A stretch of 64,000 nt of DNA from Thermoleophilia bacterium (GTDB lineage Bacteria > Actinomycetota > Thermoleophilia > Gaiellales > F1-60-MAGs149), in the NCBI GenBank assembly GCA_037133755.1, contig JBAXNN010000001.1, positions 148,838 through 212,837 of the forward strand, read 5' to 3'. The notes beneath the pieces are model-generated. The model was given only the letters and a program-made list of their open reading frames with translations. It was not told where the DNA came from and searched no databases. The stretch's first letter is position 1, and every line of letters begins with the position of its first letter. This document shows, in pieces, positions 10,873 through 38,944 of the stretch. A program made the position numbers and the translations under genes.

Positions 10873-11010
10873 CCCCGCATTATCTGCGAAAAACCCGTCA
10901 GAACACAACCACCGCGCACGTGTCTAGGTACCTGCACATGCTGTAGGAAGCGGGATTTCGCGCTGCGTAATCCGCAGGGAAGCGGGAGAGAGATTCTCGG
11001 GCCGAATCGG

Positions 11011-18171: not shown

Positions 18172-19233
18172 ATGGATCTCGACGCCGCGCTTGCCGTCCT
18201 CGCCGAGGAGGGCGCACCGAACTACCGCGCCGATCAGGTCCGCCAGGCCGTCAGCCGCGACTTCATCGATTCGTGGGACGAGGCCTCAACGCTGCCGAAG
18301 GCACTGCGCGCCGCGCTCGAGGAGCGCGCGCCGATCCACGAGCTGGTGCTCGAGGAGGAGCAGCGCGCGAAGGACGGCACCGTCAAGGCGCGGTTCTCGA
18401 CGCACGATGGCTTCCCCGCCGAGGCCGTGCTGATGCGCAGCAAGGACCGCTATACCGTGTGCCTCTCGTCGCAGTCGGGCTGCGCTCTCAAGTGCGCGTT
18501 CTGCGCGACGGGCACGATGGGCCTCGGCCGCTCGCTCACGAAGGGCGAGATCTACGAGCAGCTGCTGTGGGCGGCCCGCACGGCACGCAAGAGCGATGCG
18601 CGCATCCGCAACGTCGTGATGATGGGCATGGGCGAGCCGCTGCAGAACCTCGACAACGTGCTCGGCTTCTGCCATCTCGCCAACGATCCCGACGGCTTCG
18701 GCCTCGGCGCGCGCTCGATCGCGATCTCGACGGCCGGCTGGCTGCCGGGGATCGACGCGCTGATCGAGGAGCCGATGCAGGTGAAGCTCGCGATCTCGTT
18801 GCACGCGCCCGACGACGTGCTGCGCACGGAGCTGATGCCCGTCAACAAGCGCTATCCGATTGCCGAGCTGATGAAGACCCTCAAGCGCTACCGCACGGAG
18901 ACGCGTCGCCGGGTCTACGTGGAGTACCTGCTGCTCGATCAGGTCAACGATCGCGTCGAGCAGGCCGAGCGCCTTGCCGACCTCCTGCACGAGCATCTGC
19001 CCGGCGGGCACCATGTGAATCTCATCTGGTACAACCCGACCGGCTCAGGCCTCAACGCCTCGGCGCCGGAGCGCGTCGAGCGCTTCCAGGCGATCCTCGA
19101 GAAGCGCCGCATTCCGTTCACCCTGCGCCGCTCGAAGGGCTCCGACATCGACGCCGCCTGCGGCCAGCTGGCGGTGAAGGGCGCCGCGGCTGCGGCGCGC
19201 GCAGCAAAGCGCGCGGAGCGCGAGACGGCATGA
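18172..19233 (+). CDS. rlmN: 23S rRNA/tRNA (adenine-C2)-methyltransferase, radical SAM
   Basis: 353 aa. Contains the radical-SAM cluster motif CALKCAFCATG, GMGEPLQN, and the late Cys in DIDAACGQL. Confidence 0.9.
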   Translation: MDLDAALAVLAEEGAPNYRADQVRQAVSRDFIDSWDEASTLPKALRAALEERAPIHELVLEEEQRAKDGTVKARFSTHDGFPAEAVLMRSKDRYTVCLSSQSGCALKCAFCATGTMGLGRSLTKGEIYEQLLWAARTARKSDARIRNVVMMGMGEPLQNLDNVLGFCHLANDPDGFGLGARSIAISTAGWLPGIDALIEEPMQVKLAISLHAPDDVLRTELMPVNKRYPIAELMKTLKRYRTETRRRVYVEYLLLDQVNDRVEQAERLADLLHEHLPGGHHVNLIWYNPTGSGLNASAPERVERFQAILEKRRIPFTLRRSKGSDIDAACGQLAVKGAAAAARAAKRAERETA

Positions 19234-20107: not shown

Positions 20108-20572
20108 ATGCCCATCTTCGAGCGTTCCATCGAGATCGATGCCCCGATTCAGTCCGTCTACGACTTCCACCTCGACACGCGCAACGCTGCGCGCATCGCG
20201 TCGGAGGGCCAGGAGTTCGTCTCCATCACGGGCGACTTCCCGCTCGCGCTCGGCGGCGAGGTCGAGCTGAAGGTCAAGATGAAGCCCCTGCCGGGCACGC
20301 AGACGTGGGTCGTGCGCGTGACCGAGCTGGCCGAGCCGATCCTCGTGGTCGACGAGATGCTGAAGGGCCCGTTCGCGAAGTTCCGCCACGAGCACCGCTT
20401 CGCCCCGACCGACAGCGGCGGCACGCTCCTGACCGACCACATCGAGTGGCAGCTCCCCGGCGGCATCGCCGCCAAGGCGATCGAGCCGATCGCGAAGGCG
20501 CAGCTCGAGAAGTCGTTCGCGGAGCGCCAGGCCGCCACGAAGGCGATCCTGGAGGCCGACGCGCGGGCCTAG
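20108..20572 (+). CDS. SRPBCC (START/polyketide cyclase-like) family protein
   Basis: The ATG at 20108 gives MPIFERSIEIDAPIQSVYDFHLD...GPFAKFRHEHRF, typical of the SRPBCC/CoxG-like ligand-binding fold. The upstream part of the ORF is Arg-rich. Confidence 0.7.
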   Translation: MPIFERSIEIDAPIQSVYDFHLDTRNAARIASEGQEFVSITGDFPLALGGEVELKVKMKPLPGTQTWVVRVTELAEPILVVDEMLKGPFAKFRHEHRFAPTDSGGTLLTDHIEWQLPGGIAAKAIEPIAKAQLEKSFAERQAATKAILEADARA

Positions 20573-20595
20573 CCCCAACGGCACGCAGCCGCGCT

Positions 20596-20628
20596 CCGGG
20601 AGAGGCGGCCGCGGCCAGCCTCTCCCGG
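20596..20628. terminator. Hairpin between convergent genes
   Basis: Perfect 11-bp stem (ccgggagaggc at 20596-20606, gcctctcccgg at 20618-20628) followed by tt. Confidence 0.5.
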
Positions 20629-20676
20629 TTGCACGACGCTGCGCACCATCACGTCGCGTGGGTCGACGTCATGCCG

Positions 20677-21504
20677 CTACTGGTGGTACGTCAGCGGCGT
20701 GGCCAGCGCCGGCGGCATCCCAGGCTGCGTGTAGGGCTCGAGGAGCAGAGGGTCACCAAAGAATTGGTTGTATTGGCCAGCGAGGTGGCAGTCATCGGGG
20801 TTACCGTAGGACTGCGCGGCCGGCAGGGTATCCCGGTGAACCTGACCGCCAACGGTGAGGACGGGTTCGTTTGCTCCCCCCTTGACTAGGGCGCCCTCTG
20901 CGGGGGTGACCTGCCCTGCCCCTTGGTTGAGGTACGCCTGGCCGCTGCAGTCTCCTGTCGTGTACAAGATCCAAGCACTACTAAGCTCACTGGCAGTGGC
21001 GCTGGGTTGAGCCAGTCCCGATGATGCATTGATTTTCCAAACGGCGCCATCCACCAGACGGTAGAAATCCCCGCTCACGACGGGGCTCCCCGGCGTCGGC
21101 GCGGGAAGCCACATGACACCGCTGACCGTGTTCCCGTTGGCGTCGCGGACGGTGACGCCACCGCTCGAGCCACCCGAGCCACTCGCTCCGGCCGGACCCG
21201 CCGGTCCCGCGGGACCCGCCGGACCCGCGGGACCCGCCGGACCCGCGGGGCCTTGCGCCCCGTCCTTGCCGTCAAGCCCCTTCAGGGCTCCCTTGCTCAG
21301 ATCGGAGACCTCGATCGCGCCGCTCGCGATGTCACCCGAGCCGATGGCCCCGTCCTTGATATCGGACGACTGCACCGCGCCCTCCCTGATCTGCGCAGAC
21401 CCGACCGAGTTGGGCGCCAGGGCGACGGCGGCGTAGCCCGTCCCTCCCAGCGCAACGAACAATGCGAGTGTGGCGATGACGGTCGCCGCCGAAGGTTTCT
21501 TCAT
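20677..21504 (-). CDS. Secreted collagen-like repeat protein (CLP1)
   Basis: The ATG at 21504 gives MKKPSAATVIATLALFVALGGTGYAAVA (signal peptide). Next come DI..GA decapeptide-like repeats, then a G-X-Y tract GKDGAQ(GPA)7GAS, then a ~165-aa C-terminal domain. Confidence 0.8.
   Translation of the reverse strand: MKKPSAATVIATLALFVALGGTGYAAVALAPNSVGSAQIREGAVQSSDIKDGAIGSGDIASGAIEVSDLSKGALKGLDGKDGAQGPAGPAGPAGPAGPAGPAGPAGASGSGGSSGGVTVRDANGNTVSGVMWLPAPTPGSPVVSGDFYRLVDGAVWKINASSGLAQPSATASELSSAWILYTTGDCSGQAYLNQGAGQVTPAEGALVKGGANEPVLTVGGQVHRDTLPAAQSYGNPDDCHLAGQYNQFFGDPLLLEPYTQPGMPPALATPLTYHQ
21175..21273 (-). repeat. Collagen-like G-X-Y tract encoded by 9-bp GGNCCCGCS tandem repeats
   Basis: ggacccgccggtcccgcgggacccgccggacccgcgggacccgccggacccgcgggg on the top strand encodes (GPA)n. 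Confidence 0.85.
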
Positions 21505-21544
21505 GCGCGCCACCGTACGCCAGCCCTCAAGCCGGTTGAACGCC

Positions 21545-21597
21545 CTGTATGGGTACCCCTATCGCCCGCGGCGCATCTGTATAGGTACCCCTATCGC
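21545..21597. promoter_or_regulatory. Cassette-1 direct repeats (candidate response-regulator operator)
   Basis: ctgtatgggtacccctatcgc (21545-21565) and ctgtataggtacccctatcgc (21577-21597) are 20/21 identical with a 32-bp period. They lie in the CLP1/RR1 divergent region. Confidence 0.6.
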
Positions 21598-21606
21598 GAC
21601 GTGACC

Positions 21607-21612
21607 TAGACT
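21607..21612 (+). promoter_or_regulatory. Candidate -10 box TAGACT for RR1 (near-leaderless)
   Basis: The TAGACT hexamer end is 10 nt before the GTG at 21622. All four paralogous regulators share this geometry. Confidence 0.5.
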
Positions 21613-21621
21613 GGACACACC

Positions 21622-22269
21622 GTGCTTCGCCTCCTCCTACTCGAAGACGAGGACCTGCTGCGACTCACGCTCGCCACGGCCCTGCCGGACGAGTCGATGG
21701 AGGTCGTCGGCGCGTATGGCGATGCCAAGAGCGCGATCGCGGCGGGTACGGAAACCGCGTTCGACGTGCTCGTCACCGACCTCGACTTGGCGCAGGGCCA
21801 AGGGCCGAACGGCATCGTGGTCGCCAACGTGCTGCGCCGCACGAAGCCGGAGATCGGCGTCGTGCTGCTGACGTCGTATGCGGATCCGCGCCTGGTCGGC
21901 ACGAAGCTCGACCAGCTCCCCGAGCGCACCGAGTACGTGCGCAAGCACGCGATCCGCGACATCGACACGCTGCGCGCCGCGATCCGTCGCGCAGCGCTGG
22001 GCGCGAATCAGCCGGAGGCGCTGGCGATCGAGGCGAACCTCACCGACACGCAGGTCGAGACCATGCGCCTCGTCGCGCAGGGCCTGAGCAACGCGGAGAT
22101 CGCGCGGCAGCGCGTCGTTACTGAGGGCGCCGTCGAGGTGTCGCTTCGCAGGATCGCCCGCAATCTCGGCTACAGCAACGACTCGACGCGGAACATCCGC
22201 GCGCTGATCGTGCGCGCGTACTTCGAGATGGCCGGGGCCAGTGGTGCCCAGCACAGGCAACCGTCCTAG
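21622..22269 (+). CDS. Response regulator, receiver plus LuxR/NarL-type HTH (RR1)
   Basis: 215 aa starting VLRLLLLEDEDLL, with the acceptor Asp in DVLVTDLDL, LLTSY, and the C-terminal HTH LTDTQVETMRLVAQGLSNAEIARQRVVTEGAVEVSLRRIARNLG. Confidence 0.9.
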   Translation: MLRLLLLEDEDLLRLTLATALPDESMEVVGAYGDAKSAIAAGTETAFDVLVTDLDLAQGQGPNGIVVANVLRRTKPEIGVVLLTSYADPRLVGTKLDQLPERTEYVRKHAIRDIDTLRAAIRRAALGANQPEALAIEANLTDTQVETMRLVAQGLSNAEIARQRVVTEGAVEVSLRRIARNLGYSNDSTRNIRALIVRAYFEMAGASGAQHRQPS

Positions 22270-23956
22270 CGCGCGCGACCTGCTCGGTGGCCGCTGGGCG
22301 ATCTCGCTGCGCGGCTGGCTGATCTTCTCCGCCGTCGTGCTGGTGATCGGGCCGCTCGGCCTCCGAGCCCAGCTGAAGGTGCCCACGCAGACGATCGTGG
22401 TGGTCGCACTCGCGGGGTGGCTGCTGATGACTCTCCTCTACGCGGCCGCCCACCTCACCGTCTTCCGCAACCGCCGCACCGCACCCGTGCACGTCGCGTG
22501 GCTGATCGTGCTCGGCCTCGCCGTCGGTATCGCCCGCACGGGCGTGGCGCTCGCCGTGCCCGCGAGCCGCGACGTGCTCGGCGGCGGCTGGGTGGCGGTG
22601 CTGACAGGCGCGCTGTGCTTCGTCCCGGTCTCCGTCCTCGTGGCGGTGCTGGTGACGTACCTGATCGCCGTCGTCGACTGGTACGCCGCCGAGCGTGCGC
22701 GACTGCTGCGCTTCGAGATCGACGCCGAGGCCGCGCGACTGCGCGCCGTCGGTGCGCTCAATGCCGCGCGCGCCGTCATCACCACACGAATCCAGACGGC
22801 GCTCGAAGACCAGCTGAGCGGACTCGAGCAGGCCGCCATGGCCGACGGTGCAGACGACCGGCTGTCCGACGCGCTGCTCGACACGGCCGCCGGCTACGTT
22901 CGGCCGGAGAGCCATCGGCTCTGGCAGGAGCGCGACCCCGCGCTGCGACGCGGCAGCCTCGCGGACCTCGAGCACGCGAGCCTTGCCGCGCCACTGCCGA
23001 TCGCGCTGCCCTTCGCGCTGTGGGCCGCGATCGTCATGCCCGCTGCGGCGGTGCACTTCGGCGGTCTCCGTTGGATCCCCAGTGCGCTGGCGTTGCTCGT
23101 CGCCATGGCGGTGCTCTATCCGCTGGGCCGGGCGGCTGTCCGCCGCTACGCCCCCGCTCCGCGTTACATGCGCGCGCGCCTGATCGCCCTCGTCGCCATG
23201 GCAACCGCGGGCGCCGCAAACGCCGGCACCGCCGCCCTGCTCGGCTCGCAGACCGCCACCCCGCTGCAGCAGGCGCTGCCGGCGGTCTTCATCGTCATCA
23301 TCACCGTCGTGGTCAGCTGGGCGCAGGCCGCCCTCCGCACGGAGGACGCGCGCTTGCGCTCCCTGCGGTCGCTCGCTGAGGAGGCCGACTTCGAGCGCCT
23401 CGCCCTCGAAGCCGCGACCGAGCAGATGCAGCGCGAGCTCGCGCTCTACCTCCACGGCACCGTGCAGGCCGGCCTCGTGGCCTCGGCCTACTCGATCCAG
23501 GACGCGGTGAACCGCGGCGACACCGTGGCGCTCGAGGCCGCGATCGCCGACGCCCGCGCCTCGATCGCGCGCGTCGGGCAGGACGCCGGCGAGCCGACGG
23601 TGCACGACCTCGTCTCCCTGCGCGCGGCGATCACCGAGCGCTGGGACGGCGCCATCGCCATCACGTGGGCTCTCCCGGCCACCGAGCCGGAACCCGCGAT
23701 CATCACCCGCATCGACAACGTGCTTCAGGAGTGCCTTGCCAACGCGTCGATCCACGGAGCCGCCAGCGAGGCGACCGTGCGCATCACGGTCGAGGACGAC
23801 TGCGCGATCGTGGAGGTGACGGACAACGGCACCGGTCCTGGCAATGGCAAGCCGGGCCTCGGCAGCGCCGTCCTCAACGAGGCGACCGGCGGCCAGTGGA
23901 CGATCGCGTCGGTGCCGACCGGTGGTGCGCAGGTGCGTGCCGTCGTGCCCAAGTGA
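22241..23956 (+). CDS. Membrane sensor histidine kinase, 8 predicted TM, HisKA_3-like DHp plus HATPase (HK1)
   Basis: The GTG at 22241 overlaps RR1 by 29 nt. There are four N-terminal TM segments, a ~110-aa helical soluble insert, and four more TM segments. Then come the H-box LALYLHGTVQAGL, the N-box ECLANASIHG, DNGTG and GLGSAVL. Confidence 0.8.
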   Translation: MVPSTGNRPSARDLLGGRWAISLRGWLIFSAVVLVIGPLGLRAQLKVPTQTIVVVALAGWLLMTLLYAAAHLTVFRNRRTAPVHVAWLIVLGLAVGIARTGVALAVPASRDVLGGGWVAVLTGALCFVPVSVLVAVLVTYLIAVVDWYAAERARLLRFEIDAEAARLRAVGALNAARAVITTRIQTALEDQLSGLEQAAMADGADDRLSDALLDTAAGYVRPESHRLWQERDPALRRGSLADLEHASLAAPLPIALPFALWAAIVMPAAAVHFGGLRWIPSALALLVAMAVLYPLGRAAVRRYAPAPRYMRARLIALVAMATAGAANAGTAALLGSQTATPLQQALPAVFIVIITVVVSWAQAALRTEDARLRSLRSLAEEADFERLALEAATEQMQRELALYLHGTVQAGLVASAYSIQDAVNRGDTVALEAAIADARASIARVGQDAGEPTVHDLVSLRAAITERWDGAIAITWALPATEPEPAIITRIDNVLQECLANASIHGAASEATVRITVEDDCAIVEVTDNGTGPGNGKPGLGSAVLNEATGGQWTIASVPTGGAQVRAVVPK

Positions 23957-24024: not shown

Positions 24025-27000
24025 CTACCCGACCTTGATCTTGATCGTGCGCACGATGCTCGTGCCGTTCTTGCGCTTGACCTTCATCTTCACCTTGTAG
24101 GTGCCGGGCTTCGACGCCACGAGCTTGCCGTTGACGAGGGTCAGGCCAGCCGGCAGGGCGTCGGCCATGTACTCGACCTTCGACGTCGGGCGCACCCAGA
24201 TGTTCGCGCCGCGCAGGAGGTCTGCACCAGCAGCCGGCGTGGCGGCGTCCAGGATGGCCTCACCGCGCGTCTCACCGACGGTGATGCCCGGCGCCGGCGA
24301 GAACACCGGCGGCGTCTCGACAGACGGGGTCGTCGCAGGCGGTGTCACGACCGGCGAGGCCGGCGACGGCACACGAATCGACGACTCGCTCAGAATCGCC
24401 AGCGCGTCAATTCGGTTCGAACCTGTCACGCGCACCCGCAGGTACCGACCGGCATCCGCGGCAGCCACGGTGTAGCTGCTTGTCGCAGCACCACTGCCCG
24501 AAGCGGTCTCCCACGTCGAACCATCCGCCGACGACTGCCACGCGTAGGCGTAGTCCGTCGCGAAGTCCCACGTGCCTGTCGACGCGGTCAATGTCGAGCC
24601 GATCCCAATCGTGCCCGAGACGACCGGCACAGCCGACGACGTCGGCGCGGGAATCGCGACCTGCGCCGTTGCCGCCGAGAACGCCTCTGCTGAGGCAGCC
24701 GCATTGGTGGCCGTCACCTTCACGCGCAGGTACTTGTTGTCGTCGGTCAGATCCACGACGTACTCCGCCGTATCTCCACCCTCACCGAGCGCAGCCGTCC
24801 AGCCATCCTGACCATTGGACGACACCTGCCACTCATACGCGTACCCCGCGTCAGTATCCGGCGCATTCGACCACGTACCTTGCGAGGCCGTCAGCGTCTC
24901 GCCAACCGTCGCCGTGCCCGAATTCTGCGGCGCATCCGCACCGCCCGCATTCATCGGCGGAGCAGGCACCGTCACGACCGAGCTGTACGCCGCATCCGAC
25001 CACGTCGCGCCGTTATGGGCAATGACACGGACCTTCAGATCCTTGCCGCCATACGACTCCGGCACCACGTACTCCGCGGTCGTCCCCGAAGCACCCGTGG
25101 CAGCCGTCCACGTGTCAGCACCACGGTTCGACACCAGCCAGCGATACGTATAGCGCTCCGGCGTATTAGTCCACTGACCGCTCGTCGCACTCACCGTGTT
25201 GCCAATCCCGACGTCGCCCGTCAGCTCCGGAGCACTACCGAACAGGATGGGCAACGCACCAACCGGAGTGCCTGGAATCGCCGCGAGGCTGTAATCGAGA
25301 GAGTTCACGGTCGCTAGACGGGCAGAGCTGGTGCCATCCAGCGACGCGATACCGACGCCGCTGTTCGCACCGTCTTGGATGACGTAATAGATGCCATTCT
25401 GGTCCACACCGATCCCGCCGTTGCCGTTCCCGGCATTCGAGCCGGCAGGGTTCGCGATGAACGACGGCTGCACATCGGAGCCAGTGACATCAGCACGTCC
25501 GATGGCAGCGTTGTTGTAGTAGGTCCAGTACACGTGGTCGCCATCGACCGCAATGCCTGCGACCCCAGCCGGCAGGCTGTCGACGAAGGTCTGACCCGTA
25601 CCGCCGGTGATTGGTGCCCGGCCGATTGCGCTGCCTGAGCCGGGGCCTCGGTGGTAGTAGATGTAGTGGGCGTCGCGCGCGAAGAAATGCATCGCGGTGT
25701 ACGTATTCGTGTCGATGAAGGTCGGGTCGTGCTCACTGCCGTCGATCTTCATCCGATGGATATACGTGTGACCGTTCACCCCGTTGTCGGTGAAGTAGAT
25801 GTACTGATCGTCAATGAGCACCCCGAAGAAATTCTGCGCTCCAGCGCTATAGATGCTGGCCGGCGCCGTGCTGCCATTGGCGGGAGCCACATAGATGTCG
25901 CCGCTGCAGCCCCAGACGTTGGTCGTGCCGTTGGAGGAAAAGCCCCAACCACCCGGATTCGCGTATGGCTGCAACGACGCACCATCAGCCATCAGTGATG
26001 CGCTCTTGACGTAGAGATGAGACAGCGTCGATAGTGCCGCCACCAGCGTGCTAGCGCTCGAGGCCGTGGCCGTGTTGCCGTTGAAGGCTGTGACCGTCAC
26101 GCGTACGTACTGGCCCACGTCGCCGGTCTGCGTGACATACCCGGCCGTGGCATTGCCAGGGCCCGTCGCGCTCACCCACGTCCCGAGAGCACCCGACGGC
26201 GACAACTGCCACTGGTAGGTGTACGTGATGTTCCCTGTGGACTCCGTCCACGCACCAGGCGTCGCAATCCTGAAGAGGCCGTTGAGCCTCACCGTCGGCG
26301 CGGTGTCGTTCACCGGCGCCGGTGGTGCGGCCACCACGACAGTCGCCGCCGAGTAGGCGGTCGTCAGCAGACCACCGGCCGCCCCGGCACGCACCTTGAG
26401 CCGTACCGTCTTGCCGATATCGGAGATGCCAGGCGCATAGGTGGCCTGGCCATTCGTGCCGGGAGCGGCCGACCACGTTGCGCCGCTATCGCTTGAGACT
26501 TGCCACACGTAGAACACCTGGGACGGCGTGGCCGACCACGTGCCGTCACCCGCCGTCAGCGTCTGCCCCACCGCAGGTGTCCCGCTGATCGTGGGCTGCG
26601 CACTGTTCGTGAGCGCAGCACCCAGTGGCGGCAGCGGGGTCCCGCCGCTGACATGCACCCGCGAGCGATTCGTCAAGTAGGTCATATCGGCGATTCCCGT
26701 CACAAGCGTCGGGTTGACGTCGGTACCGTCGAGCTTTGCGCTGCCAATCTGCCCACCGCTCCAATCGCGTGCCGCCCAGTACAGCCGGCTGCCCGTGGCA
26801 GTGATACCCCAGACCGTGCGCGAGTTCTGCGTGTCCAGCCACGTGTTGTTCTGATCGGTACCGTCGAGCTTGGCACGGCCGATGCGGTTGGAGTAGCTGG
26901 TGCTGACCCAGTACAGATAGGTGCCATCGGTGGTGATGCCGCGAACATCGCCCGTGTTGTTGACGAGCACCTGCGACGAGCCACCATCGATCGCTGTGCG

Positions 27001-28623
27001 GTAGATGGCATTGCCACCAAACGAGTACAGCCAGTTGGCATCGCCGGTCATGGCATGCCCCCACAGCACGCCGCTGCCGTCGGCGAAGTGCCGGATGTTG
27101 TGCTGGCCATCCACGTCGACTCGACCGATCCAGGTGTTCACCGAGCAGTTGTAATACAGGTACTCATCTGTGACGTACAAACTGCCAAGGCCGTAGTAGT
27201 TGCCGTCGTTACCCCGAACCGTGGAGCAGAGGGTGTCAACGAGCTCCGTTGCCGAGCCGGTTCCGTCGATGCTCTTCTGACAGATCTTGTCTGCATCCTG
27301 ACGCCCATAGAACATGGTGCTGTTCCATCCGAACGCGTCTTCTCTCGAACATGTGGTGCTGATGCTGTCGTCGCGACCGCCGGGAATCGCCACGCCCGTG
27401 GTGTCATTGATCCATGTAGAGCCCACCGCAGTGTTACCCGCCCAGTAGAGCGTCGTCGAGGGCAGCGGCGTCAGCGCAGCGATCGTCTGCGCCGACGAGT
27501 GCGCCGACGTCAGCACGCCGCCCGTCGCGCCCGCGCGCACCAGCACGCGAAGCTGTTTGCCGACATCGCCGCGCTTGGGCGCGTAGCTGCTCGTTGTCGC
27601 GTCAGCTCCTGCTCCGTTGGACCACGTGGATCCGCTGTCTGCCGACACCTGCCACTGGTAGTACACATCGTCAGGCGTGGCCGACCACGTTCCCGCATCG
27701 GCAGTGACGATCTCGCCCACCTGCACCGTGCCTGTTATCGCAGGCGCCGCGGAGAGGGTGAGCGCCGGACCGAGGGGCACCTTCGGCGTGCCCCCGATGA
27801 TCGAGATCTGATGGTTCTGGCCCGTTGCCGTGATGCCGGTGATCAGCGTCGGCTGCACATTCGTGCCGTTGAGGTTCGCCTTGCCGACCGTGCCTGGGAA
27901 GCGCGACGTCCAGAAGATGCTGCTGCCGTCGACCTCGACTCCCCAGACCTGGGCGGTCGACTGCGTGTCGAGCCAGGTGTGGTCGATACCGGTGCCGTCG
28001 AGGTTGGCGCGGTGGATGAAGCGGGAGTCAAACCCCGACCAGTAGATGTGCTGGCCGTCGACCGCGATCCCGCGCATGTCGAACCCGGCGTTGACGTTGT
28101 ACGTCGGGTCGATAGGTCCGCCGCTCTCAGGATTGACCCGGCGAATGCCCGCATAGCTATACCCGATGTACAGCCAATTCGCATCCGTGGTGAGGCTGTA
28201 GGGATAGTTGCCGTCCACGCCCCACGCGAAGTGCGGGTTGTTGTGGGTGCCGTCGAGGTTCGCTCGGCCGATCCACTTGCTGCGGACGCACGTGTAGAAG
28301 ATGTGCGAAGCAGATGCGGTGAAGCCCGCGATGCCGCACTGCGTATTCGCAACTGTTCGGTTCACGTTGCCGCCCGTCAGGTCCTGGGTGCAGATGTAGT
28401 TGCCACTCGTGCCGTACAGCGTGGTGGCGTCGGCGAAGAACGCGTACTCCGCCAGGCAGTTGGTGCTGACCGAGAAGTTGACGTTCGTGCCGTCCGTCGA
28501 CGCGGTGCCGATGCTCGAGTCGGCGCCCCAGTACAGGGACCCTGCTCGCGCCTGAGCCGAGAAAGTGCCGAACAGCGCGACAAGGAAAATGGCGATGACG
28601 GTCGCCGCCGAAGGCTTCTTCAT
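24025..28623 (-). CDS. Giant secreted protein: three YWTD/LDL-receptor-class-B-like beta-propeller regions alternating with Ig-like domains, plus a conserved C-terminal domain
   Basis: The ATG at 28623 gives MKKPSAATVIAIFLVALFGTFSAQARA, for 1532 aa. Recurrent blade motifs include LYWG/IYWS/IFWT/LYWA and IGRANLDGT/IGRAKLDGT/IGSAKLDGT. There are repeated ~90-aa modules of the type G.WS..P....Y.WQ.S.D.G..W......Y......D.G..LRV.V.A. Confidence 0.85.
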   Translation of the reverse strand: MKKPSAATVIAIFLVALFGTFSAQARAGSLYWGADSSIGTASTDGTNVNFSVSTNCLAEYAFFADATTLYGTSGNYICTQDLTGGNVNRTVANTQCGIAGFTASASHIFYTCVRSKWIGRANLDGTHNNPHFAWGVDGNYPYSLTTDANWLYIGYSYAGIRRVNPESGGPIDPTYNVNAGFDMRGIAVDGQHIYWSGFDSRFIHRANLDGTGIDHTWLDTQSTAQVWGVEVDGSSIFWTSRFPGTVGKANLNGTNVQPTLITGITATGQNHQISIIGGTPKVPLGPALTLSAAPAITGTVQVGEIVTADAGTWSATPDDVYYQWQVSADSGSTWSNGAGADATTSSYAPKRGDVGKQLRVLVRAGATGGVLTSAHSSAQTIAALTPLPSTTLYWAGNTAVGSTWINDTTGVAIPGGRDDSISTTCSREDAFGWNSTMFYGRQDADKICQKSIDGTGSATELVDTLCSTVRGNDGNYYGLGSLYVTDEYLYYNCSVNTWIGRVDVDGQHNIRHFADGSGVLWGHAMTGDANWLYSFGGNAIYRTAIDGGSSQVLVNNTGDVRGITTDGTYLYWVSTSYSNRIGRAKLDGTDQNNTWLDTQNSRTVWGITATGSRLYWAARDWSGGQIGSAKLDGTDVNPTLVTGIADMTYLTNRSRVHVSGGTPLPPLGAALTNSAQPTISGTPAVGQTLTAGDGTWSATPSQVFYVWQVSSDSGATWSAAPGTNGQATYAPGISDIGKTVRLKVRAGAAGGLLTTAYSAATVVVAAPPAPVNDTAPTVRLNGLFRIATPGAWTESTGNITYTYQWQLSPSGALGTWVSATGPGNATAGYVTQTGDVGQYVRVTVTAFNGNTATASSASTLVAALSTLSHLYVKSASLMADGASLQPYANPGGWGFSSNGTTNVWGCSGDIYVAPANGSTAPASIYSAGAQNFFGVLIDDQYIYFTDNGVNGHTYIHRMKIDGSEHDPTFIDTNTYTAMHFFARDAHYIYYHRGPGSGSAIGRAPITGGTGQTFVDSLPAGVAGIAVDGDHVYWTYYNNAAIGRADVTGSDVQPSFIANPAGSNAGNGNGGIGVDQNGIYYVIQDGANSGVGIASLDGTSSARLATVNSLDYSLAAIPGTPVGALPILFGSAPELTGDVGIGNTVSATSGQWTNTPERYTYRWLVSNRGADTWTAATGASGTTAEYVVPESYGGKDLKVRVIAHNGATWSDAAYSSVVTVPAPPMNAGGADAPQNSGTATVGETLTASQGTWSNAPDTDAGYAYEWQVSSNGQDGWTAALGEGGDTAEYVVDLTDDNKYLRVKVTATNAAASAEAFSAATAQVAIPAPTSSAVPVVSGTIGIGSTLTASTGTWDFATDYAYAWQSSADGSTWETASGSGAATSSYTVAAADAGRYLRVRVTGSNRIDALAILSESSIRVPSPASPVVTPPATTPSVETPPVFSPAPGITVGETRGEAILDAATPAAGADLLRGANIWVRPTSKVEYMADALPAGLTLVNGKLVASKPGTYKVKMKVKRKNGTSIVRTIKIKVG

Positions 28624-28663: not shown

Positions 28664-28715
28664 GTGTCGTACTTACCGCCCCACTACCAACCGCAAGTGT
28701 CGTACTTCCCGCCCC
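28664..28715. promoter_or_regulatory. Cassette-2-type direct repeats upstream of the giant gene
   Basis: gtgtcgtacttaccgcccc (28664-28682) and gtgtcgtacttcccgcccc (28697-28715), period 33 bp. They are part of a 125-nt block (28591-28715) that matches 30767-30891 with 8 mismatches. Confidence 0.6.
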
Positions 28716-28792
28716 TCGGCGCGGCTCCAGGGCGTAGGCGCGCCGCGGTGCCGCGCTACGGGTAGCGCGTCCCGGAGGTCGCCCGCGCCGGC

Positions 28793-30799
28793 TCAGCCGG
28801 TGACGCCCGGCAGAGCCGGCGGGGGCGACACCACGACGGTGCGTGTCGTCGTGCGCGCAGTGCCACCGGTCGGCGTGAAGGTCGTCGTGACGACCACGGC
28901 ACGGCGCGTGGCGACGGCCTCGAGGTGGCAGATCAGCGTCACGGTCGTCGCGCGGGTCACCGTCTCGGTCGCAGTGCAGGCCGCACGCCGCGCCGATGAC
29001 ACCCGGCGATACACGCCACGCTGCGTGACACGACCAGCCGAAGGGAGGCGGATGCTGGTGATGATCGACGTACCGACGGTCCGCGACGACAGAGCACGAA
29101 ACCGATTCGACGGCGGCGTCGGAGCGGCAGCGGTCGCCGTCGGCGTGGATGCGGTGGTCGCCGCCGCCGCGCCGGGAGTCGTCGGAGCCGCGCTATCGAC
29201 GGTGAACGTCGCCGTCGCACTGGTCGCACCGGTGATCGTCACGCTGCACGTCGTCGAGGTACCCGTACAGGCTCCGCTCCAGCCCGCGAACGTCGAACCG
29301 CTGGCCGGCGTGGCCGTGAGCGTCACCGTGCTCGACAGCGTGAACGAGGCACTGCAGGTTGCCCCGCAGCTGATCCCGGCCAGTGACGAGACCACCGAGC
29401 CACTGCCGCTACCGGCAGTGGAAACGATGAGCAAGGCGCTCGTCGGGGCAGCGCGGGTGACGGCCTGGATCAACCCCGAGCCCACTTCGCCCCAGACAAC
29501 GGTCGTGGCTCCGTCAGGCGCGACGGCGATCTGAGGGTACCGGGCGTCCAGTCCCGCAGCGGAGAGGTCCGCAGGGGGATCAGCCACAGGATCGGGCCAG
29601 CTACCGCCTGCAGGGCGCGTTGCGGCCTGGACGGTGTGCGCCGAGTAGACATCTTCGTGCGCCCACACGACCGTTGTTGACCCGTCAAACGCGATCGCGA
29701 TCTGGGGGTTTTGGGCATCCTCAAGCGTCACGTAGAGCTCGGACGATGTGCCCCAGGTGTTCGACCCGGCAGGGCGGGTAGCAGCCTGGATGGAGTTGAC
29801 CGCGAAGCCGTCAGTGTTGTGCCACACGACCGTTGCGGACCCATCGGACGCGATCGCGAGCTTGGGGTATCGGGCATCCTCACCCATCGCAGAGAGGACG
29901 GCCGGTATGCCCCAGGTGTTCGACCCGGCGGGGCGGGTGGCAGCCTGAATGGAGTTAACCGAGAGGCCGTCTTGGCGCTGCCACACGACCGTGGCGGTTC
30001 CGTCGGATGCGATCGCGATCTGGGGGTTCTGCGCATCCTCACCCGTCGCGGAGAGGACGGCCGGTGCGCCCCAGGTGTTCGATCCGGCAGGGCGGGTGGC
30101 AGCCTGGATGGAGTACCCCGAGGGGCCCTCGGAGTGCTGCCACACGACCGTTGCGGACCCATCGGACGCGATTGCGATCTCGGAGTAGAAGGAGATCTCG
30201 CCCACCACGGAGAGGTTCACGGGAGTGTCAACCGCAGGGTCGGGCCAGCTGCCCCCTGCGGGGCGCGTTGCGGCCTGGATGACGTAGCCGCCGGAGCCGT
30301 CGTCGGCGTACCACACGGCAGTTGCGGCGCCGTCGGCCGCAATAGCGATCTGGGGTAGATAGGCAAACGTACTCACCATGGAGATTTCCACGGGAGGACC
30401 CCAGGTGTTCGAGCCGGCGGGGCGGGTAGCAGCACAGATGCGGTCGTCGCTTGCCCAGATGGCCGTGGCCGATCCGTCGGCCGCAATAGCGATCTGGGGG
30501 TATGTGTTGTTCTGCCCCGTCACCGAGAGGACGTCCAACGTGCCCCACGTATTCGATCCGGCAGGGCGCGTGGCGGCCTGGATGATGTAGTTCGTGCCGT
30601 CGAAGTGGGACCAGACTGCCGTGGCGGCTCCATCGGGCGCGACGGCGATCTGCTGACTGCTATTCCCAGTCGTCGCGGCAACGTCAACGGGCGCACCCCA
30701 CGTGACTGCCTCGGCCGACGACGACGACGCGAGGACGACGGCCATCGACACGGCGAATGCGAGTGCGGCGATGACGGTCGCCGCCGAAGGCTTCTTCAT
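28793..30799 (-). CDS. Secreted repeat protein (7-8 units of ~48-53 aa, beta-propeller-like), Ig-like GWSGAC-type domain, PAT linker, Cys-containing C-terminal domain ending in VTG
   Basis: The ATG at 30799 gives MKKPSAATVIAALAFAVSMAVVLASSSSAEA. The unit is IQAATRPAGSNTWG.P..LS..G..A..PQIAIA.DG.ATVVW. The three central units are 159-bp DNA repeats (ccccaggtgt at 29751, 29910 and 30069). Confidence 0.8.
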   Translation of the reverse strand: MKKPSAATVIAALAFAVSMAVVLASSSSAEAVTWGAPVDVAATTGNSSQQIAVAPDGAATAVWSHFDGTNYIIQAATRPAGSNTWGTLDVLSVTGQNNTYPQIAIAADGSATAIWASDDRICAATRPAGSNTWGPPVEISMVSTFAYLPQIAIAADGAATAVWYADDGSGGYVIQAATRPAGGSWPDPAVDTPVNLSVVGEISFYSEIAIASDGSATVVWQHSEGPSGYSIQAATRPAGSNTWGAPAVLSATGEDAQNPQIAIASDGTATVVWQRQDGLSVNSIQAATRPAGSNTWGIPAVLSAMGEDARYPKLAIASDGSATVVWHNTDGFAVNSIQAATRPAGSNTWGTSSELYVTLEDAQNPQIAIAFDGSTTVVWAHEDVYSAHTVQAATRPAGGSWPDPVADPPADLSAAGLDARYPQIAVAPDGATTVVWGEVGSGLIQAVTRAAPTSALLIVSTAGSGSGSVVSSLAGISCGATCSASFTLSSTVTLTATPASGSTFAGWSGACTGTSTTCSVTITGATSATATFTVDSAAPTTPGAAAATTASTPTATAAAPTPPSNRFRALSSRTVGTSIITSIRLPSAGRVTQRGVYRRVSSARRAACTATETVTRATTVTLICHLEAVATRRAVVVTTTFTPTGGTARTTTRTVVVSPPPALPGVTG

Positions 30800-30839
30800 G
30801 CGCGCCAACGTACGCGCGCGCTATAAGCCGCACGCGAAG

Positions 30840-30891
30840 GTGTCGTACTTCCCGCCCCACCAGCAGCCGCAAGTGTCGTACTTACCGCCCC
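30840..30891. promoter_or_regulatory. Cassette-2 direct repeats (candidate RR2 operator)
   Basis: gtgtcgtacttcccgcccc (30840-30858) and gtgtcgtacttaccgcccc (30873-30891) are 18/19 identical with a 33-bp period. Confidence 0.6.
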
Positions 30892-30913
30892 CCGTCGTGC
30901 TCTGGGTTGGTCG

Positions 30914-30919
30914 TAGACT
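30914..30919 (+). promoter_or_regulatory. Candidate -10 box TAGACT for RR2
   Basis: The hexamer end is 10 nt before the ATG at 30929, the same geometry as the other three cassettes. Confidence 0.5.
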
Positions 30920-30928
30920 GCTCGCATG

Positions 30929-31576
30929 ATGCTGCGCGTGCTGCTGATCGAGGACGAGGACCTCCTTCGCCTCGCCCTTGCCTCCATGCTGCCCGACGAG
31001 ACGATCGAGGTCGTCGGGGCGTTCGCGGATGGCGCGAGCGCCGTGGAGGCCGCGAAGACGACCGATTTCGACGTGCTCGTCACCGACCTCGACCTGGGGA
31101 ACGAGCAGGCGCCGAACGGCATCGTTGTCGCCAACGTCCTGCGTCGCACAAAGCCCGACATCGGCATCGTGCTGCTGACGTCGTATGCGGATCCGCGGCT
31201 CGTCGGCGCCAAGCTCAACCAAGTGCCCGACCGCACTGAGTACATCCGCAAGCAGTCGGTGCGGGACATGGACGCGCTGCGCGCCGCGATTCGCCGCGCG
31301 GCATACGCCCACACCGACGTGATGACGCCGCTGCCCGAGGTCGAATTGACCGATGGGCAGATCGAGACGATGCGACTCGTCGCGCAAGGGCTCACCAACA
31401 GCGAGATCGCGCGCCAGCGCGTCGTGTCGGAGCGCACCGTCGAGAAGTCGATCCAGCGGATCGCACAGGTGCTCGGCGCGACCGGGGACTCGACGACCAA
31501 CACGCGCGTGCTGCTCGTGCGCGCGTACTTCGAGCTCGCCGGGGGCAAGGGTGCCCAAGACAAGCTCCCGTCCTAG
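30929..31576 (+). CDS. Response regulator, receiver plus LuxR/NarL-type HTH (RR2)
   Basis: MLRVLLIEDEDLL..DVLVTDLDL..LTDGQIETMRLVAQGLTNSEIARQRVVSERTVEKSIQRIAQVLG. I prefer the second ATG (30929) over 30926, by alignment with the paralogs and the -10 spacing. Confidence 0.9.
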   Translation: MLRVLLIEDEDLLRLALASMLPDETIEVVGAFADGASAVEAAKTTDFDVLVTDLDLGNEQAPNGIVVANVLRRTKPDIGIVLLTSYADPRLVGAKLNQVPDRTEYIRKQSVRDMDALRAAIRRAAYAHTDVMTPLPEVELTDGQIETMRLVAQGLTNSEIARQRVVSERTVEKSIQRIAQVLGATGDSTTNTRVLLVRAYFELAGGKGAQDKLPS

Positions 31577-33260
31577 CGCGCGCGAGCTGCTGGGTGGCCG
31601 CTGGGCGATCTCGGTCCGCGGCTGGCTGATCCTCTCTGTCGTCACCGTGATCAGCGCGATCGGGATCCGAGCGCAGTTGGGCGTCTCGACGCCGGCCGCG
31701 GCAGCGTTCACGCTCGCGTTCTGGCTGCTGGCGACAGCCATGTTCGTGGCTGCGCACCTGACCATCTTCCGTAACCGCCGCACCAAGCCCGTCCACATCG
31801 CGTGGCTGATCGCGTTCGCCATCAGCATTGGGATCGTGCGCGTGGCCGTGGCGTTTGCCGTCCCCGAGATCCGTGCCGCGCTGGGCGATGGCTGGCCGGG
31901 CGCATTCACAGCCGTCGTCTCCTTCGTCCCGGGCACAGTGCTGCTCGTCGTGCTGGTCGCGTACCTCCTCGCCGTGACCGACTGGTACGCCTCCGAGCGC
32001 ATACGGCTTCTGCACTTCGAGATCGACGCCGAAGCCGCGCGCCTGCGTGCCATCGGCGCGCTCAATGCCGCGCGCTCGGTGATCACCACCCGCATTCAAA
32101 CAGCGCTCGAGGGCCAGCTGAGCGAACTCGAACGCGCCGCCAAGGTCGATGACGCCGACGTGCGCCTCTCCGACGTGCTCCTCGACACCGCCGTCGGGTA
32201 CGTGCGCCCCGAGAGCCACCGGCTCTGGCAGGAGCGCGATCCCGCCCTGCGCCGCGGCACCCTTGCCGACGTCGAACGAGCGAGCCTCTCCGCCCCCCTG
32301 CCGATCGCGCTGCCCTTCGCGCTGTGGGCGGTCGTCATCGTCCCCGTGGCCATGGTGCGCTTCGGCGCCGGACACGGAATGTTGAGCGCACTCGCCGTGC
32401 TGACCGCCATGGCCGTGCTCTATCCGCTCGGTCGCGCTGCCGTCCGCCGCTACACGCCCGCACCACGCTATATCCGCGCGCGCCTGCTCACGCTCGTGTT
32501 CATGGCGGGCGCCGCCCTCGCCGGACCAGGCACGACGCTGCTGGGTGGGGCGAACACCACGCTGCAGCTGCAGCAGATCATGGCCGCCTTGATGATCGTC
32601 GTCGCGACGATCGCCGTCAGCTGGGCCCAGGCCGCACTCCGCGCGCAGGATGCGCGTCTGCGCTCCCTGCGCTCCCATGCCGAGGAGGCCGACTTCGAGC
32701 GCCTCGCGCTCGAGGCCGCGACCGAGCAGATGCAGCGCGAGCTCGCGCTCTATCTCCACGGCACGGTGCAGGCCGGCCTCGTGGCGTCGGCGTACTCGAT
32801 CCAGGACGCCGCCAATCGCGGCGACTCCGAGGCGCTCGAGACGGCGATCGCCGACGCCCGCTCCGCCATCGCGCAGCTGGGCAATGACGACGAGCGCGCG
32901 GCGATGGTCGACTTCGCCGAGCTGTCGCAGCGGTTTGACGCGAAGTGGCGCGGCATGATCGCGATCACCTGGGAGCTGCCAGGCGAGGCGACGACCGACG
33001 TGGCGCTGCAGCGCGTCAGCGACGTGGTGCAGGAGTGCCTCGCCAACGCCACGATCCACGGTGCCGCGACGGAGGCGACCGTGCGCGTCGTCGTCGAGGA
33101 CGACAGCGCGATCGTCGAGGTCACCGACGACGGCACCGGTGTCGGTGACGGCAAGCCCGGCCTCGGCAGCGCCGTCCTCAACGAGGCGACGGGCGGCCGA
33201 TGGACGATCGCGTCGATGCCGACCGGTGGCGCGCAGGTGCGCGCCGTCGTGCCGGTCTAG
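31551..33260 (+). CDS. Membrane sensor histidine kinase paralog (HK2)
   Basis: The GTG at 31551 (VPKTSSRPSARELLGGRWAIS) aligns with the starts of the other three kinases and overlaps RR2 by 26 nt. The longer track ORF from 31353 runs through RR2 in another frame. Architecture and H/N/G boxes match HK1. Confidence 0.8.
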   Translation: MPKTSSRPSARELLGGRWAISVRGWLILSVVTVISAIGIRAQLGVSTPAAAAFTLAFWLLATAMFVAAHLTIFRNRRTKPVHIAWLIAFAISIGIVRVAVAFAVPEIRAALGDGWPGAFTAVVSFVPGTVLLVVLVAYLLAVTDWYASERIRLLHFEIDAEAARLRAIGALNAARSVITTRIQTALEGQLSELERAAKVDDADVRLSDVLLDTAVGYVRPESHRLWQERDPALRRGTLADVERASLSAPLPIALPFALWAVVIVPVAMVRFGAGHGMLSALAVLTAMAVLYPLGRAAVRRYTPAPRYIRARLLTLVFMAGAALAGPGTTLLGGANTTLQLQQIMAALMIVVATIAVSWAQAALRAQDARLRSLRSHAEEADFERLALEAATEQMQRELALYLHGTVQAGLVASAYSIQDAANRGDSEALETAIADARSAIAQLGNDDERAAMVDFAELSQRFDAKWRGMIAITWELPGEATTDVALQRVSDVVQECLANATIHGAATEATVRVVVEDDSAIVEVTDDGTGVGDGKPGLGSAVLNEATGGRWTIASMPTGGAQVRAVVPV

Positions 33261-35425: not shown

Positions 35426-35465
35426 TCGTCCACGCTAAGCCACGTCCCGCATCTGCTGACCGACC

Positions 35466-35515
35466 TGTCGTACTGCCCGTATCGCGCCTCGAGCGTGTGT
35501 CGTACTGCCCGTATC
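35466..35515. promoter_or_regulatory. Cassette-3 direct repeats (candidate RR3 operator)
   Basis: tgtcgtactgcccgtatc at 35466-35483 and 35498-35515, 18/18 identical, 32-bp period. Confidence 0.6.
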
Positions 35516-35526
35516 TGTCACTGACC

Positions 35527-35532
35527 TAGACT
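35527..35532 (+). promoter_or_regulatory. Candidate -10 box TAGACT for RR3
   Basis: The hexamer end is 10 nt before the ATG at 35542. Confidence 0.5.
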
Positions 35533-35541
35533 GGCTCCACG

Positions 35542-36189
35542 ATGCTGCGCGTGCTTCTACTCGAGGACGAAGCCCTGCTGCTGATGATGCTCGCGTCCAC
35601 GCTGCCCGACGAGACGATGACCGTCGTCGGCGCATTCGAGGACGCCAAGAGCGCGGTTGCCGCGGCGGCCGAGACGCCGTTCGACGTGCTCGTCACCGAC
35701 CTCAACCTGACCGCCGGTCTCGGCCCGAACGGCATCGTCGTCGCCAACGTCATCCGGCGCGCGCATCCGGAGGCCGGCATCGTGATGCTCACGTCCTATG
35801 CCGATCCGCGGCTCGTCGGCGCGAAGCTCGAGCAGGTGCCCGACCGAACGGAGTACGTCCGCAAACACGACGTGCGCGACATCGAGGTGCTGCGTGCCGT
35901 GATTCGCCGGGCCGCCTACGGCTCCCTCGATCGCCTGGCCGACCTGCCGGCGATCGAACTCACCGACACGCAGGTCGAGACGATGCGACTTGTCGCCCAG
36001 GGCCTCAGCAATGCCGAGATTGCACGGCTGCGCGTCGTGTCCGAGCGCGCCGTCGAGCAGACGGTCAACCGGATCGCCCGCAGCCTTGGCTGCGGCAACG
36101 ACTCGAGCGTCAACTCGCGGGCGCAGATCGTCCGCGCGTACTACGAGCTGACTGGCAGCGGCGGTGCCCACAACTCTCTCTCGTCCTAG
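35542..36189 (+). CDS. Response regulator, receiver plus LuxR/NarL-type HTH (RR3)
   Basis: MLRVLLLEDEALL..DVLVTDLNL..LTDTQVETMRLVAQGLSNAEIARLRVVSERAVEQTVNRIARSLG. Confidence 0.9.
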   Translation: MLRVLLLEDEALLLMMLASTLPDETMTVVGAFEDAKSAVAAAAETPFDVLVTDLNLTAGLGPNGIVVANVIRRAHPEAGIVMLTSYADPRLVGAKLEQVPDRTEYVRKHDVRDIEVLRAVIRRAAYGSLDRLADLPAIELTDTQVETMRLVAQGLSNAEIARLRVVSERAVEQTVNRIARSLGCGNDSSVNSRAQIVRAYYELTGSGGAHNSLSS

Positions 36190-38828: not shown

Positions 38829-38868
38829 GCGTCCACGCTATGCCAGCCCGCAGGGCGGTTCATCGTCG

Positions 38869-38918
38869 TGTGAGGATTCCCGTAGGTGGTTTCCCACAAC
38901 TGTCGTGTTTACCGTAGA
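38869..38918. promoter_or_regulatory. Cassette-4 repeats (one good site plus a degenerate upstream copy)
   Basis: tgtcgtgtttaccgtaga lies at 38901-38918. The copy 32 bp upstream (38869-38886) conserves only the 3' half (t.ccgtag). Confidence 0.4.
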
Positions 38919-38929
38919 CGGCGGTGAAC

Positions 38930-38935
38930 TACACT
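38930..38935 (+). promoter_or_regulatory. Candidate -10 box TACACT for RR4
   Basis: The hexamer end is 10 nt before the ATG at 38945. Confidence 0.45.
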
Positions 38936-38944
38936 CGCCACACG

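Follow-up and report, generated by a model that had tools for sequence, protein, structure and literature searches.

In this work, a 64-kb stretch of DNA from a Thermoleophilia bacterium (contig JBAXNN010000001.1; hereafter the window, to which all coordinates without a locus name refer) was analyzed with a focus on one divergent control region that carries two 21-nucleotide (nt) direct repeats, at 21545-21565 and 21577-21597. The repeats lie between the minus-strand gene CLP1, which encodes a secreted or membrane-anchored collagen-like protein, and the plus-strand operon RR1-HK1, which encodes a LuxR-type response regulator and a histidine-kinase-like protein; these three genes form cassette 1. 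Comparison with related control regions indicates that the repeats are almost certainly the binding sites of the regulator itself. With moderate confidence, we propose that they form an RR1 operator pair, from which RR1 would activate both CLP1 and its own operon.

Probable operator pair in the control region of cassette 1

Both repeats are read on the plus strand, and their starts are 32 nt apart. Site 1 (CTGTATGGGTACCCCTATCGC, 21545-21565) is distal to RR1 and proximal to CLP1, and site 2 (CTGTATAGGTACCCCTATCGC, 21577-21597) is proximal to RR1; they are identical at 20 of 21 positions, the single mismatch being G/A at position 7. The inter-site spacer of 11 nt (21566-21576) reads CCGCGGCGCAT. 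Site 2 is followed by a 9-nt linker (21598-21606, GACGTGACC) and by TAGACT (21607-21612), the predicted -10 box of the RR1-HK1 operon, and occupies the -35/spacer region of this promoter. On the minus strand, a TACGGT box (21512-21517; ACCGTA on the plus strand), the predicted -10 box of the CLP1 promoter, stands 7 nt before the CLP1 ATG at 21504, which is 41 nt from the start of site 1. An earlier sequence-only reading of this region had reported the repeat positions, the one-base difference, the 32-nt spacing, and the distances of 9 nt to TAGACT and 41 nt to the CLP1 ATG, all of which were confirmed to the base. The lack of a TTGACA-like hexamer, reported there as well, was borne out by a scan with the sigma-70 consensus, which found in 21350-21750 no promoter with a TTGACA-like -35 element paired to a -10 box; no terminator was found in the same interval.

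A chance origin of the repeat pair is excluded: allowing up to three mismatches, the 21-mer occurs at only two places in the 64 kb, compared with 0.00 expected from 100 shuffles, and no further RR1-type site lies in the window at this threshold. An RNA element was dropped as a candidate, since Rfam gave no family match in 20500-22500 at E <= 1 and the repeats lie upstream of both inferred transcription start sites (TSSs).

The near-leaderless regulator promoter of the sequence-only reading also stood. No in-frame start is possible upstream of the RR1 GTG (21622), whose position matches the N-terminus of all homologues in the alignment; the GTG follows TAGACT after 9 nt (GGACACACC) without a Shine-Dalgarno sequence. 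CLP1, with TACGGT 7 nt before its ATG, shows the arrangement that marks leaderless promoters (TAnnnT 6-8 nt before the start, without a Shine-Dalgarno sequence), and its paralogues and orthologues have TAGCGT followed by 6 nt; in the regulator genes the start codon comes 6-9 nt after the TAGACT-type box, compared with the 6-8 nt of that definition. Judged from these boxes, the CLP1 mRNA looks leaderless and the RR1-HK1 mRNA leaderless or nearly so. If the RR1 TSS is assumed to lie 7 nt after the -10 box, site 2 is centred at about -32.5 and spans -42 to -22, and the centre of site 1 is at about -64.5; relative to the CLP1 ATG/TSS, site 1 is centred at about -50.5.

Conservation and fixed geometry of the sites

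Relatives of the cassette were collected in two scans, one covering species-representative genomes and the other metagenome contigs, and paralogues within the window were located by tblastn with the regulator combined with reading of the other intergenic regions. The two scans gave about 25 loci with regulators 47-99% identical to RR1, all of them in metagenome-assembled genomes (MAGs) labelled Thermoleophilia, Gaiellales or "actinobacterium", or in lake metagenomes; removal of duplicates left about 20 distinct control regions, and about 15 cassettes were thereby added to those of the window. The window itself holds four paralogous cassettes (20677-23956, which is cassette 1, 28793-33260, 33257-37873 and 37944-41279), and the regulators of these are mutually 66-72% identical. 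Every intergenic region contains two oriented sites of about 21 nt on the regulator strand, together with a TAGACT or TACACT box.

Orthologues of the cassette 1 type (regulators 84-99% identical) retain both repeats as well as the 9-nt linker and the -10 box, whereas the outer flanks and the 11-nt spacer are not conserved, the latter keeping its length and losing its sequence in the alignment. At the level of sequence comparison, the repeats are a classic phylogenetic footprint.

Counted from its TGT, the proximal site precedes the -10 box by 29 nt in 15 non-identical cassettes; in four others (the cassette at ~30.9 kb of the window and those of loci L006, L007 and L020) the distance is 39-40 nt. 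The longer distance is one extra helical turn; it places the centre of the proximal site at -42.5 or -43.5 and its span at -52 to -32. The regulator -10 box, which is TAGACT, TACACT or TAAACT, stands at the same position in 19 cassettes. The leader between this box and the start codon varies from 6 to 9 nt, and therefore indels do happen where they are tolerated. The distance between the two sites is usually 32 nt, with a range of 30-33 nt. On the opposite side, a TAnnnT box, mostly TAGCGT, precedes the ATG of the divergent gene by 6-7 nt. This ATG and the TGT of the site closest to it are separated by 41 nt, or by 42 nt where 7 nt lie between box and ATG (about 19 cases). The corresponding pattern CAT-N6/7-ANNNTA is present in 14/14 cassettes that have a divergent gene, and also at the orphan sites described below. 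In the distant loci L009 and L023 (regulators about 50% identical), a degenerate proximal site (TGC... or TAT...) can be recognized by eye 29 nt before TACAGT. L015 (2741-2956) shows a variant arrangement: a strong AGGAG Shine-Dalgarno sequence is present in the leader of its divergent gene, and its single proximal site, itself 29 nt from a TACACT box, has a site pair 58 nt further upstream.

The same comparison bears on whether the sites have any regulatory role, or are leftovers of local duplication or recombination or mobile-element sites tied to the spread of the cassettes. The cassettes are indeed duplicated within the genome, and on one contig of the collection (L004, 1865-1917 and 2915-2967) a 53-bp segment with a site pair is identical at two loci while the flanking promoter DNA differs, which suggests gene conversion between control regions. 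However, the site positions have been kept across regulators just 67-99% identical while the spacers diverged, and the sites stand in a fixed register with two -10 boxes. Moreover, the sites are not accompanied by any transposase, integrase or terminal inverted repeats, and the region has no Rfam match. A purely non-regulatory origin thus seems highly improbable.

Consensus and symmetry of the sites

The sites of all cassettes fit the consensus sTGT-N8-CC-N7, in which T2, G3, T4, C13 and C14 never vary and T10, T16, A17 and C19 hardly do. In the cassettes with the 29-nt distance, a (G)TGACC-like linker is conserved as well, and the alignment columns G104, C106, T108, C111 and C112 are invariant. 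For sites of the cassette 1 type, the conserved unit is CTGTAnnGsTAsCCCTAyCGC. The GGTACC core emphasized in the sequence-only reading is present in both repeats (21552-21557 and 21584-21589), but as a key determinant it was rejected: the orthologues have GGTAGC, GCTACC, GCTAGC, GATACC or GGTGCC instead. The two S positions of the unit vary independently, and the GGTACC palindrome is therefore incidental.

Dyad symmetry within the sites is modest; it is centred about T10/A11 and involves 60% of the pairs in the cassette 1 type and 37-60% across types. TA steps within the sites show a 6/12-nt periodicity. An internal periodicity of 11 nt is absent, the self-similarity at offset 11 being 0.12 compared with a shuffled mean of 0.25, and by this analysis tandem 11-bp units of the pho/afs box type were rejected. 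The combination of a weak dyad with TA periodicity would fit an asymmetric dimer site rather than OmpR-like tandem units.

A position weight matrix (PWM) was built from 40 sites and scanned over 116 kb of related loci. Its matches fall only in intergenic control regions, always on the regulator strand and nearly always in pairs 32 nt apart. Site 1 is the top PWM match. In the window, weak single matches were found in intergenic DNA at 10920-10940 and 62011-62031 (13-14 bits), and inside open reading frames at 26322 and 30417 (-). These were treated as chance matches, because they have no partner 32 nt away and no conserved geometry.

Co-variation of site subtypes and recognition helices

The sites fall into four or five subtypes, which co-vary one-to-one with the recognition helix of the adjoining regulator. 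The helix ..TEGAVEVSLRRIARNLG (GAVEVSLRR), found in seven cassettes, is accompanied by the site TGTA..G.TA.CCCTA.CGC, and the helix ..TERAVEMSLYRIARNLG (RAVEMSLYR) by TGTAGAG.TA.CCGTA.CGC. Next to the helix ..ERAVEQ(S/T)(I/V)NRI.RSLG the site reads TGTCGT...CCGTA, and next to ..TERTVEKSIQRIAQ.LG (RTVEKSIQR) it reads TGTCGTACT.CCCGCC. Since the subtype tracks the recognition helix, the co-variation points to the cognate regulator as the binder of the adjoining sites. The GAVEVSLRR group includes a regulator 98.6% identical to RR1 (metagenome contig L012, 699-834) that stands beside a different divergent gene, starting with MHPSHTRLPVV... and not with the MKKPSAA... of the collagen-like protein; its operator sites differ from those of the window at unconserved positions only and are 33 nt apart, not 32.

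The variable residues 169, 173 and 176 of the helix align with K179, N183 and S186 of DevR (HMMER), and in the DosR-DNA structure K179 and N183 reportedly contact bases. The invariant E172 (22135-22137 in RR1) aligns with DevR K182, a residue documented as DNA-contacting (title of reference 24 in PMC3177182). An invariant Glu at this position throughout the regulator family is unusual for a base- or phosphate-contacting position, and it may be linked to the invariant CC of the operator.

Another binder was also considered, either one global factor reading the TGT-N8-CC core or a sigma-associated promoter element. Such a binder would account for the invariance of the T2, G3, T4, C13 and C14 core over all subtypes, and the distal site of C3 opens with TGTGA, like a CRP half-site. 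However, the second half-site (TCACA) is absent, and a CRP-like TGTGA-N6-TCACA site was rejected for this reason. A single global binder is hard to reconcile with four clearly different subtypes in one genome, each of them beside the regulator with the matching recognition helix. The sites, furthermore, occur only beside these cassettes or orphan target genes, and their location upstream of both -10 boxes is not one that a single promoter element would take. Binding by a factor other than the cognate regulator is accordingly rated improbable.

Orphan site pairs

Four site pairs have no regulator gene downstream: 28664/28697 in the window, and L004 1865/1897, L006 269/301 and L007 1535/1567. 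Each of them is 41-42 nt from the leaderless ATG of another secreted-protein gene. The pair in the window (28664-28717, plus strand) consists of GTGTCGTACTTACCGCCCCAC and GTGTCGTACTTCCCGCCCCTC, 33 nt apart, and lies 42 nt from the minus-strand ATG at 28623 of a gene (24025-28623) for a 1532-aa protein with DUF5050 and Ig repeats. The segment 28623-28717 duplicates the control region 30799-30893, with the same leaderless promoter and two operator sites. It lacks a regulator gene and a TAGACT box, and its similarity to the copy at 30.8 kb stops right after the second site. The subtype of an orphan pair is that of the neighbouring cassette's regulator.

With centres near -50 and -82, the orphan sites lie entirely upstream of the secreted-protein genes' core promoters. 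Because the pairs stand at secreted-protein genes, the two-site module is primarily an upstream element of secreted-protein promoters. Steric repression from -50/-82 is implausible, and the position of the orphan pairs is the strongest argument obtained here, from comparison of control regions, for the regulator acting as an activator.

Predicted mode of regulation

According to the proposed mechanism, HK1 would phosphorylate RR1, and each 21-nt site would probably bind one RR1 dimer. As the sites are three helical turns (32 bp) apart, the dimers would sit on the same face of the DNA, where they could bind cooperatively. Phosphorylated RR1 on both sites would then recruit RNA polymerase to both promoters: with sites near -32 and -64, site 2 would replace the -35 region of the RR1-HK1 promoter, and with sites near -50 and -82, CLP1 would be activated from upstream. 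As a result, the surface protein would be switched on and the two-component system amplified. For the proximal site at -32.5, we favour a stereospecific contact with RNA polymerase rather than repression, because the distance is exact, the sole alternative is one turn upstream, and no -35-like hexamer is present.

The same sites bound by the same regulator could, however, act with opposite signs, in a LysR-like logic: RR1 at site 2 (-42 to -22) would occlude its own promoter, giving negative autoregulation, while CLP1 would be activated. Site 2 overlaps the -35/spacer region of the RR1 promoter, the strong and highly conserved TAGACT might give basal transcription without a -35 element, and the orphan pairs serve secreted-protein genes in the absence of any regulator promoter, all of which would suit this scheme. 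On the other hand, a distance of exactly 29 nt in 15 cassettes, and otherwise of 10 or 11 nt more, which keeps the helical face, is expected for contact with RNA polymerase and not for occlusion, and in the cassettes with 39-40 nt the proximal site (-52 to -32) hardly reaches into the core promoter. Positive autoregulation is also the commoner rule in two-component systems, and this was counted against occlusion as well. Finally, activators bound at -29.5 to -33 have precedents (PMC10936776). We therefore regard opposite signs as rather unlikely, and in our estimate positive autoregulation is favoured, with reasonable though not high confidence, over autorepression combined with divergent activation, which we hold to be doubtful.

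For the activation of both genes by RR1, several points count on the negative side. All relatives are uncultured MAGs or metagenome contigs, and the TSS positions are read from the -10 boxes alone. Repressors, too, classically occupy a position such as -42 to -22. A recognisable -35 element is often missing from actinobacterial promoters, so its absence is no proof of activator dependence, and LuxR-type dimers usually bind inverted repeats, whereas the dyad symmetry here is modest (60% of pairs for type I, with less symmetry in the other types). The co-variation of helix and site comes from only four or five coherent clades, to which shared ancestry could contribute, and is suggestive without being statistically independent. 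The near-identity of the repeats in the window (20/21) exceeds that in the orthologues (about 15/21), and it may come partly from local gene conversion and not from selection, a possibility to which the identical 53-bp segments of L004 also point. With these points weighed, the activator-dependent, autoregulated divergent promoter pair put forward in the sequence-only reading keeps its structural elements, which are backed by the footprints, the fixed distances, the TAnnnT boxes 6-9 nt ahead of each start codon, the helix co-variation and the orphan pairs.

Comparison with known regulatory systems

The system is of a known kind, in which the phased upstream sites of a two-component regulator of the NarL/LuxR family lie in a divergent, autoregulated intergenic region. 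A close parallel is DevR/DosR of Mycobacterium tuberculosis, likewise a NarL/LuxR-type response regulator of an actinobacterium, which acts, for example, at tgs1-Rv3131, narK2-Rv1738 and Rv3134c-devRS. From boxes at -42.5 and -63.5, which share one helical phase, DevR switches on divergent promoters as well as its own operon; when 5 or 15 bp are inserted between these boxes, binding to the secondary site is lost, and the 5-bp insertion cuts promoter activity to about 9% of the wild type (PMC3177182). In both systems, two or more boxes of about 20 bp face the same side of the helix between divergent genes, with the regulator's own operon as a target and the proximal box overlapping the -35 element in DevR (PMC3177182); in the cassettes described here, the overlap is with the -35 position and control of the own operon is proposed.

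Dev boxes are adjacent, with centres 21 bp apart, whereas here the distance is 32 bp with an unconserved 11-bp gap, and the proximal site is near -32.5 in most cassettes and near -42.5/-43.5 in four only. Dev boxes are clear palindromes with GGGACT half-sites, whereas the present sites are oriented and weakly dyad-symmetric. Two boxes on one helical face, the proximal one overlapping the -35 position, are present, but not the adjacent palindromic 18-20-mers of the DevR type. The equivalent of DevR K182 is an invariant Glu, and the transcripts, as judged from the -10 boxes, would be leaderless on both sides.

A second parallel concerns the position of the proximal site. PhoB acts through direct repeats that replace the -35 element. 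In the SARP/AfsR afs box of Streptomyces, as in the pho box, the -35 element is replaced by a site of about 21-22 bp whose downstream end is 8-10 bp from the -10 box, comparable to the 9-nt linker in 15 of the cassettes. SARP activators bind direct repeats whose 3' unit is 8 bp from the -10 box, and the afs box, centred at -29.5, is a docking point for sigma region 4 in what is called sigma adaptation (PMC10936776). As in the cassettes, further repeat units lie integral helical turns upstream. However, the afs and pho box proteins are OmpR-type winged-helix proteins on 11-bp tandem units, whereas RR1 has a GerE/LuxR helix-turn-helix (HTH) and its sites lack an 11-nt periodicity.

VraSR/LiaFSR resemble the cassettes in that VraR is the closest solved relative of RR1 and in the membrane-embedded kinases without a large extracellular domain. 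The VraSR/LiaFSR operon is autoregulated via sites upstream of and overlapping the -35 element. In contrast to that system, sequence identity is low, no LiaF-like partner is present, the operators are unrelated in sequence, the kinases have two separate hydrophobic blocks and no HisKA_3 domain detectable by Pfam, and the divergent target encodes a secreted collagen-like or beta-propeller protein. HbpS-SenS-SenR of Streptomyces also combines a secreted protein with a kinase and a response regulator and has regulatory elements in the shared intergenic region (PMC4991794), but its gene order is hbpS, senS-senR and the secreted proteins have no homology. In the literature, nothing relevant was found on Thermoleophilia systems of this kind, and no paper describing this cassette family was found.

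Significance

The value of the family lies in its being a clean example, with about 20 natural variants of base-exact geometry in which both the operator and the recognition helix change. It offers ready hypotheses on which residues of a LuxR-type helix read which operator positions, on how paralogous two-component systems avoid cross-talk at the level of DNA, and on whether a LuxR-type regulator activates leaderless actinobacterial promoters from a position replacing the -35 element. It also provides a first regulatory annotation for freshwater Thermoleophilia/Gaiellales-like bacteria, a lineage without cultured close relatives, in which each system is linked to one secreted collagen-like, beta-propeller or Ig-repeat protein.

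More tentatively, the cassettes may represent mutually insulated modules, each composed of a kinase, a LuxR-type regulator and a surface protein. In such modules, the helix (residues 169, 173 and 176) and a 20-bp oriented operator would have co-diversified after duplication, with activation from -32.5 replacing the -35 element (sigma adaptation) and of the divergent leaderless gene from -50.5; we regard this extended scheme as possible but speculative. Sigma adaptation is the -35-replacing mode of SARP and PafBC. Should the scheme be true, the cassettes would form a natural "specificity code" series for DNA recognition by the LuxR-type HTH and the first -35-replacing mode of activation described for a NarL-family regulator in Actinobacteria, a position unusual for this family.

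Paralogous cassettes and their genes

All four cassettes of the window share one gene order: a secreted protein on the minus strand, a LuxR/NarL-type regulator and a kinase of about 570 aa. Three of them are arranged head to tail between 28.8 and 41.3 kb. At ~30.9 kb, the control region (30840-30919, plus strand) has sites of the type GTGTCGTACTTCCCGCCCCAC at 30840-30860 and 30873-30893 and TAGACT at 30914-30919, which is 40 nt downstream of the site 2 TGT; the region separates CLP4 (28793-30799, minus) from RR4 (30926/30929-31576). At ~35.5 kb (35465-35532, plus strand), sites of the type CTGTCGTACTGCCCGTATCGC lie at 35465-35485 and 35497-35517 and TAGACT at 35527-35532, between the gene for a 722-aa protein (33257-35425, minus) and RR2 (35542-36189). 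At ~38.9 kb (38868-38935, plus strand), sites of the type CTGTCGTGTTTACCGTAGACG lie at 38868-38888 and 38900-38920 and TACACT at 38930-38935, between CLP3 (37944-38828, minus) and RR3 (38945-39592).

In cassette 1, RR1 (21622-22269, plus strand) is a response regulator of 215 aa with a GTG start and a leader of at most 9 nt. It consists of a receiver domain (Pfam Response_reg, 39.4 bits with a cutoff of 30.2) and a GerE/LuxR-type HTH (GerE, 33.5 bits with a cutoff of 23.5). Its phospho-acceptor pocket is intact, with E8, D9, D53, T84 and K108 invariant in 10 homologues. The closest solved relatives in the PDB, aligned over the full length, are VraR (E = 1.6e-9), DevR/DosR, DesR and RcsB; the RR1-DevR alignment has an E-value of only 3e-6. 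MadR, the Enterococcus envelope-defence regulator, was the best curated match in NCBIfam, but with 61.2 bits against an equivalog cutoff of 300 this identity was rejected, and by these scores RR1 belongs to no named NCBIfam equivalog.

HK1 (22241-23956, plus strand; 571 aa) overlaps the end of RR1. Its C-terminal HATPase_c match is borderline (Pfam, 25.7 bits with a cutoff of 26.4), an H-box-like LALYLHGTVQAGL lies near residue 402, and weak NCBIfam matches were obtained to MctS, UhpB and NarX. In the kinases of the four cassettes, Pfam detected neither HisKA nor HisKA_3. These kinases (22241-23956, 31551-33260, 36164-37873 and 39567-41279) have an unusual build, with two hydrophobic blocks (about residues 18-151 and 246-367 in HK1) and a charged coiled-coil-like segment between them.

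CLP1 (20677-21504, minus strand; 275 aa) carries the N-terminus MKKPSAATVIATLALFVALGGTGYAA, has a signal or anchor sequence and contains GPAGPAGPA collagen repeats. A near-identical N-terminal start, MKKPSAATVIA..., occurs in four secreted proteins (21427-21504, 28546-28623, 30722-30799 and 38751-38828, all minus), with CLP1 and CLP3 identical over the first ~26 residues. The mature parts of the four proteins are unrelated, being collagen-like, InlB-B-repeat/BNR-like, or a DUF5050 beta-propeller with Ig-like repeats. Together with the promoter, the 5' end of these genes seems to be a common module that recombination has spread. Housekeeping genes flank the cassettes, namely one for a radical-SAM/RlmN-like enzyme (18172-19233, plus) and one for an MqnA-like menaquinone (futalosine pathway) biosynthesis protein (41276-42103, minus), and the cassette cluster therefore sits in ordinary chromosome.

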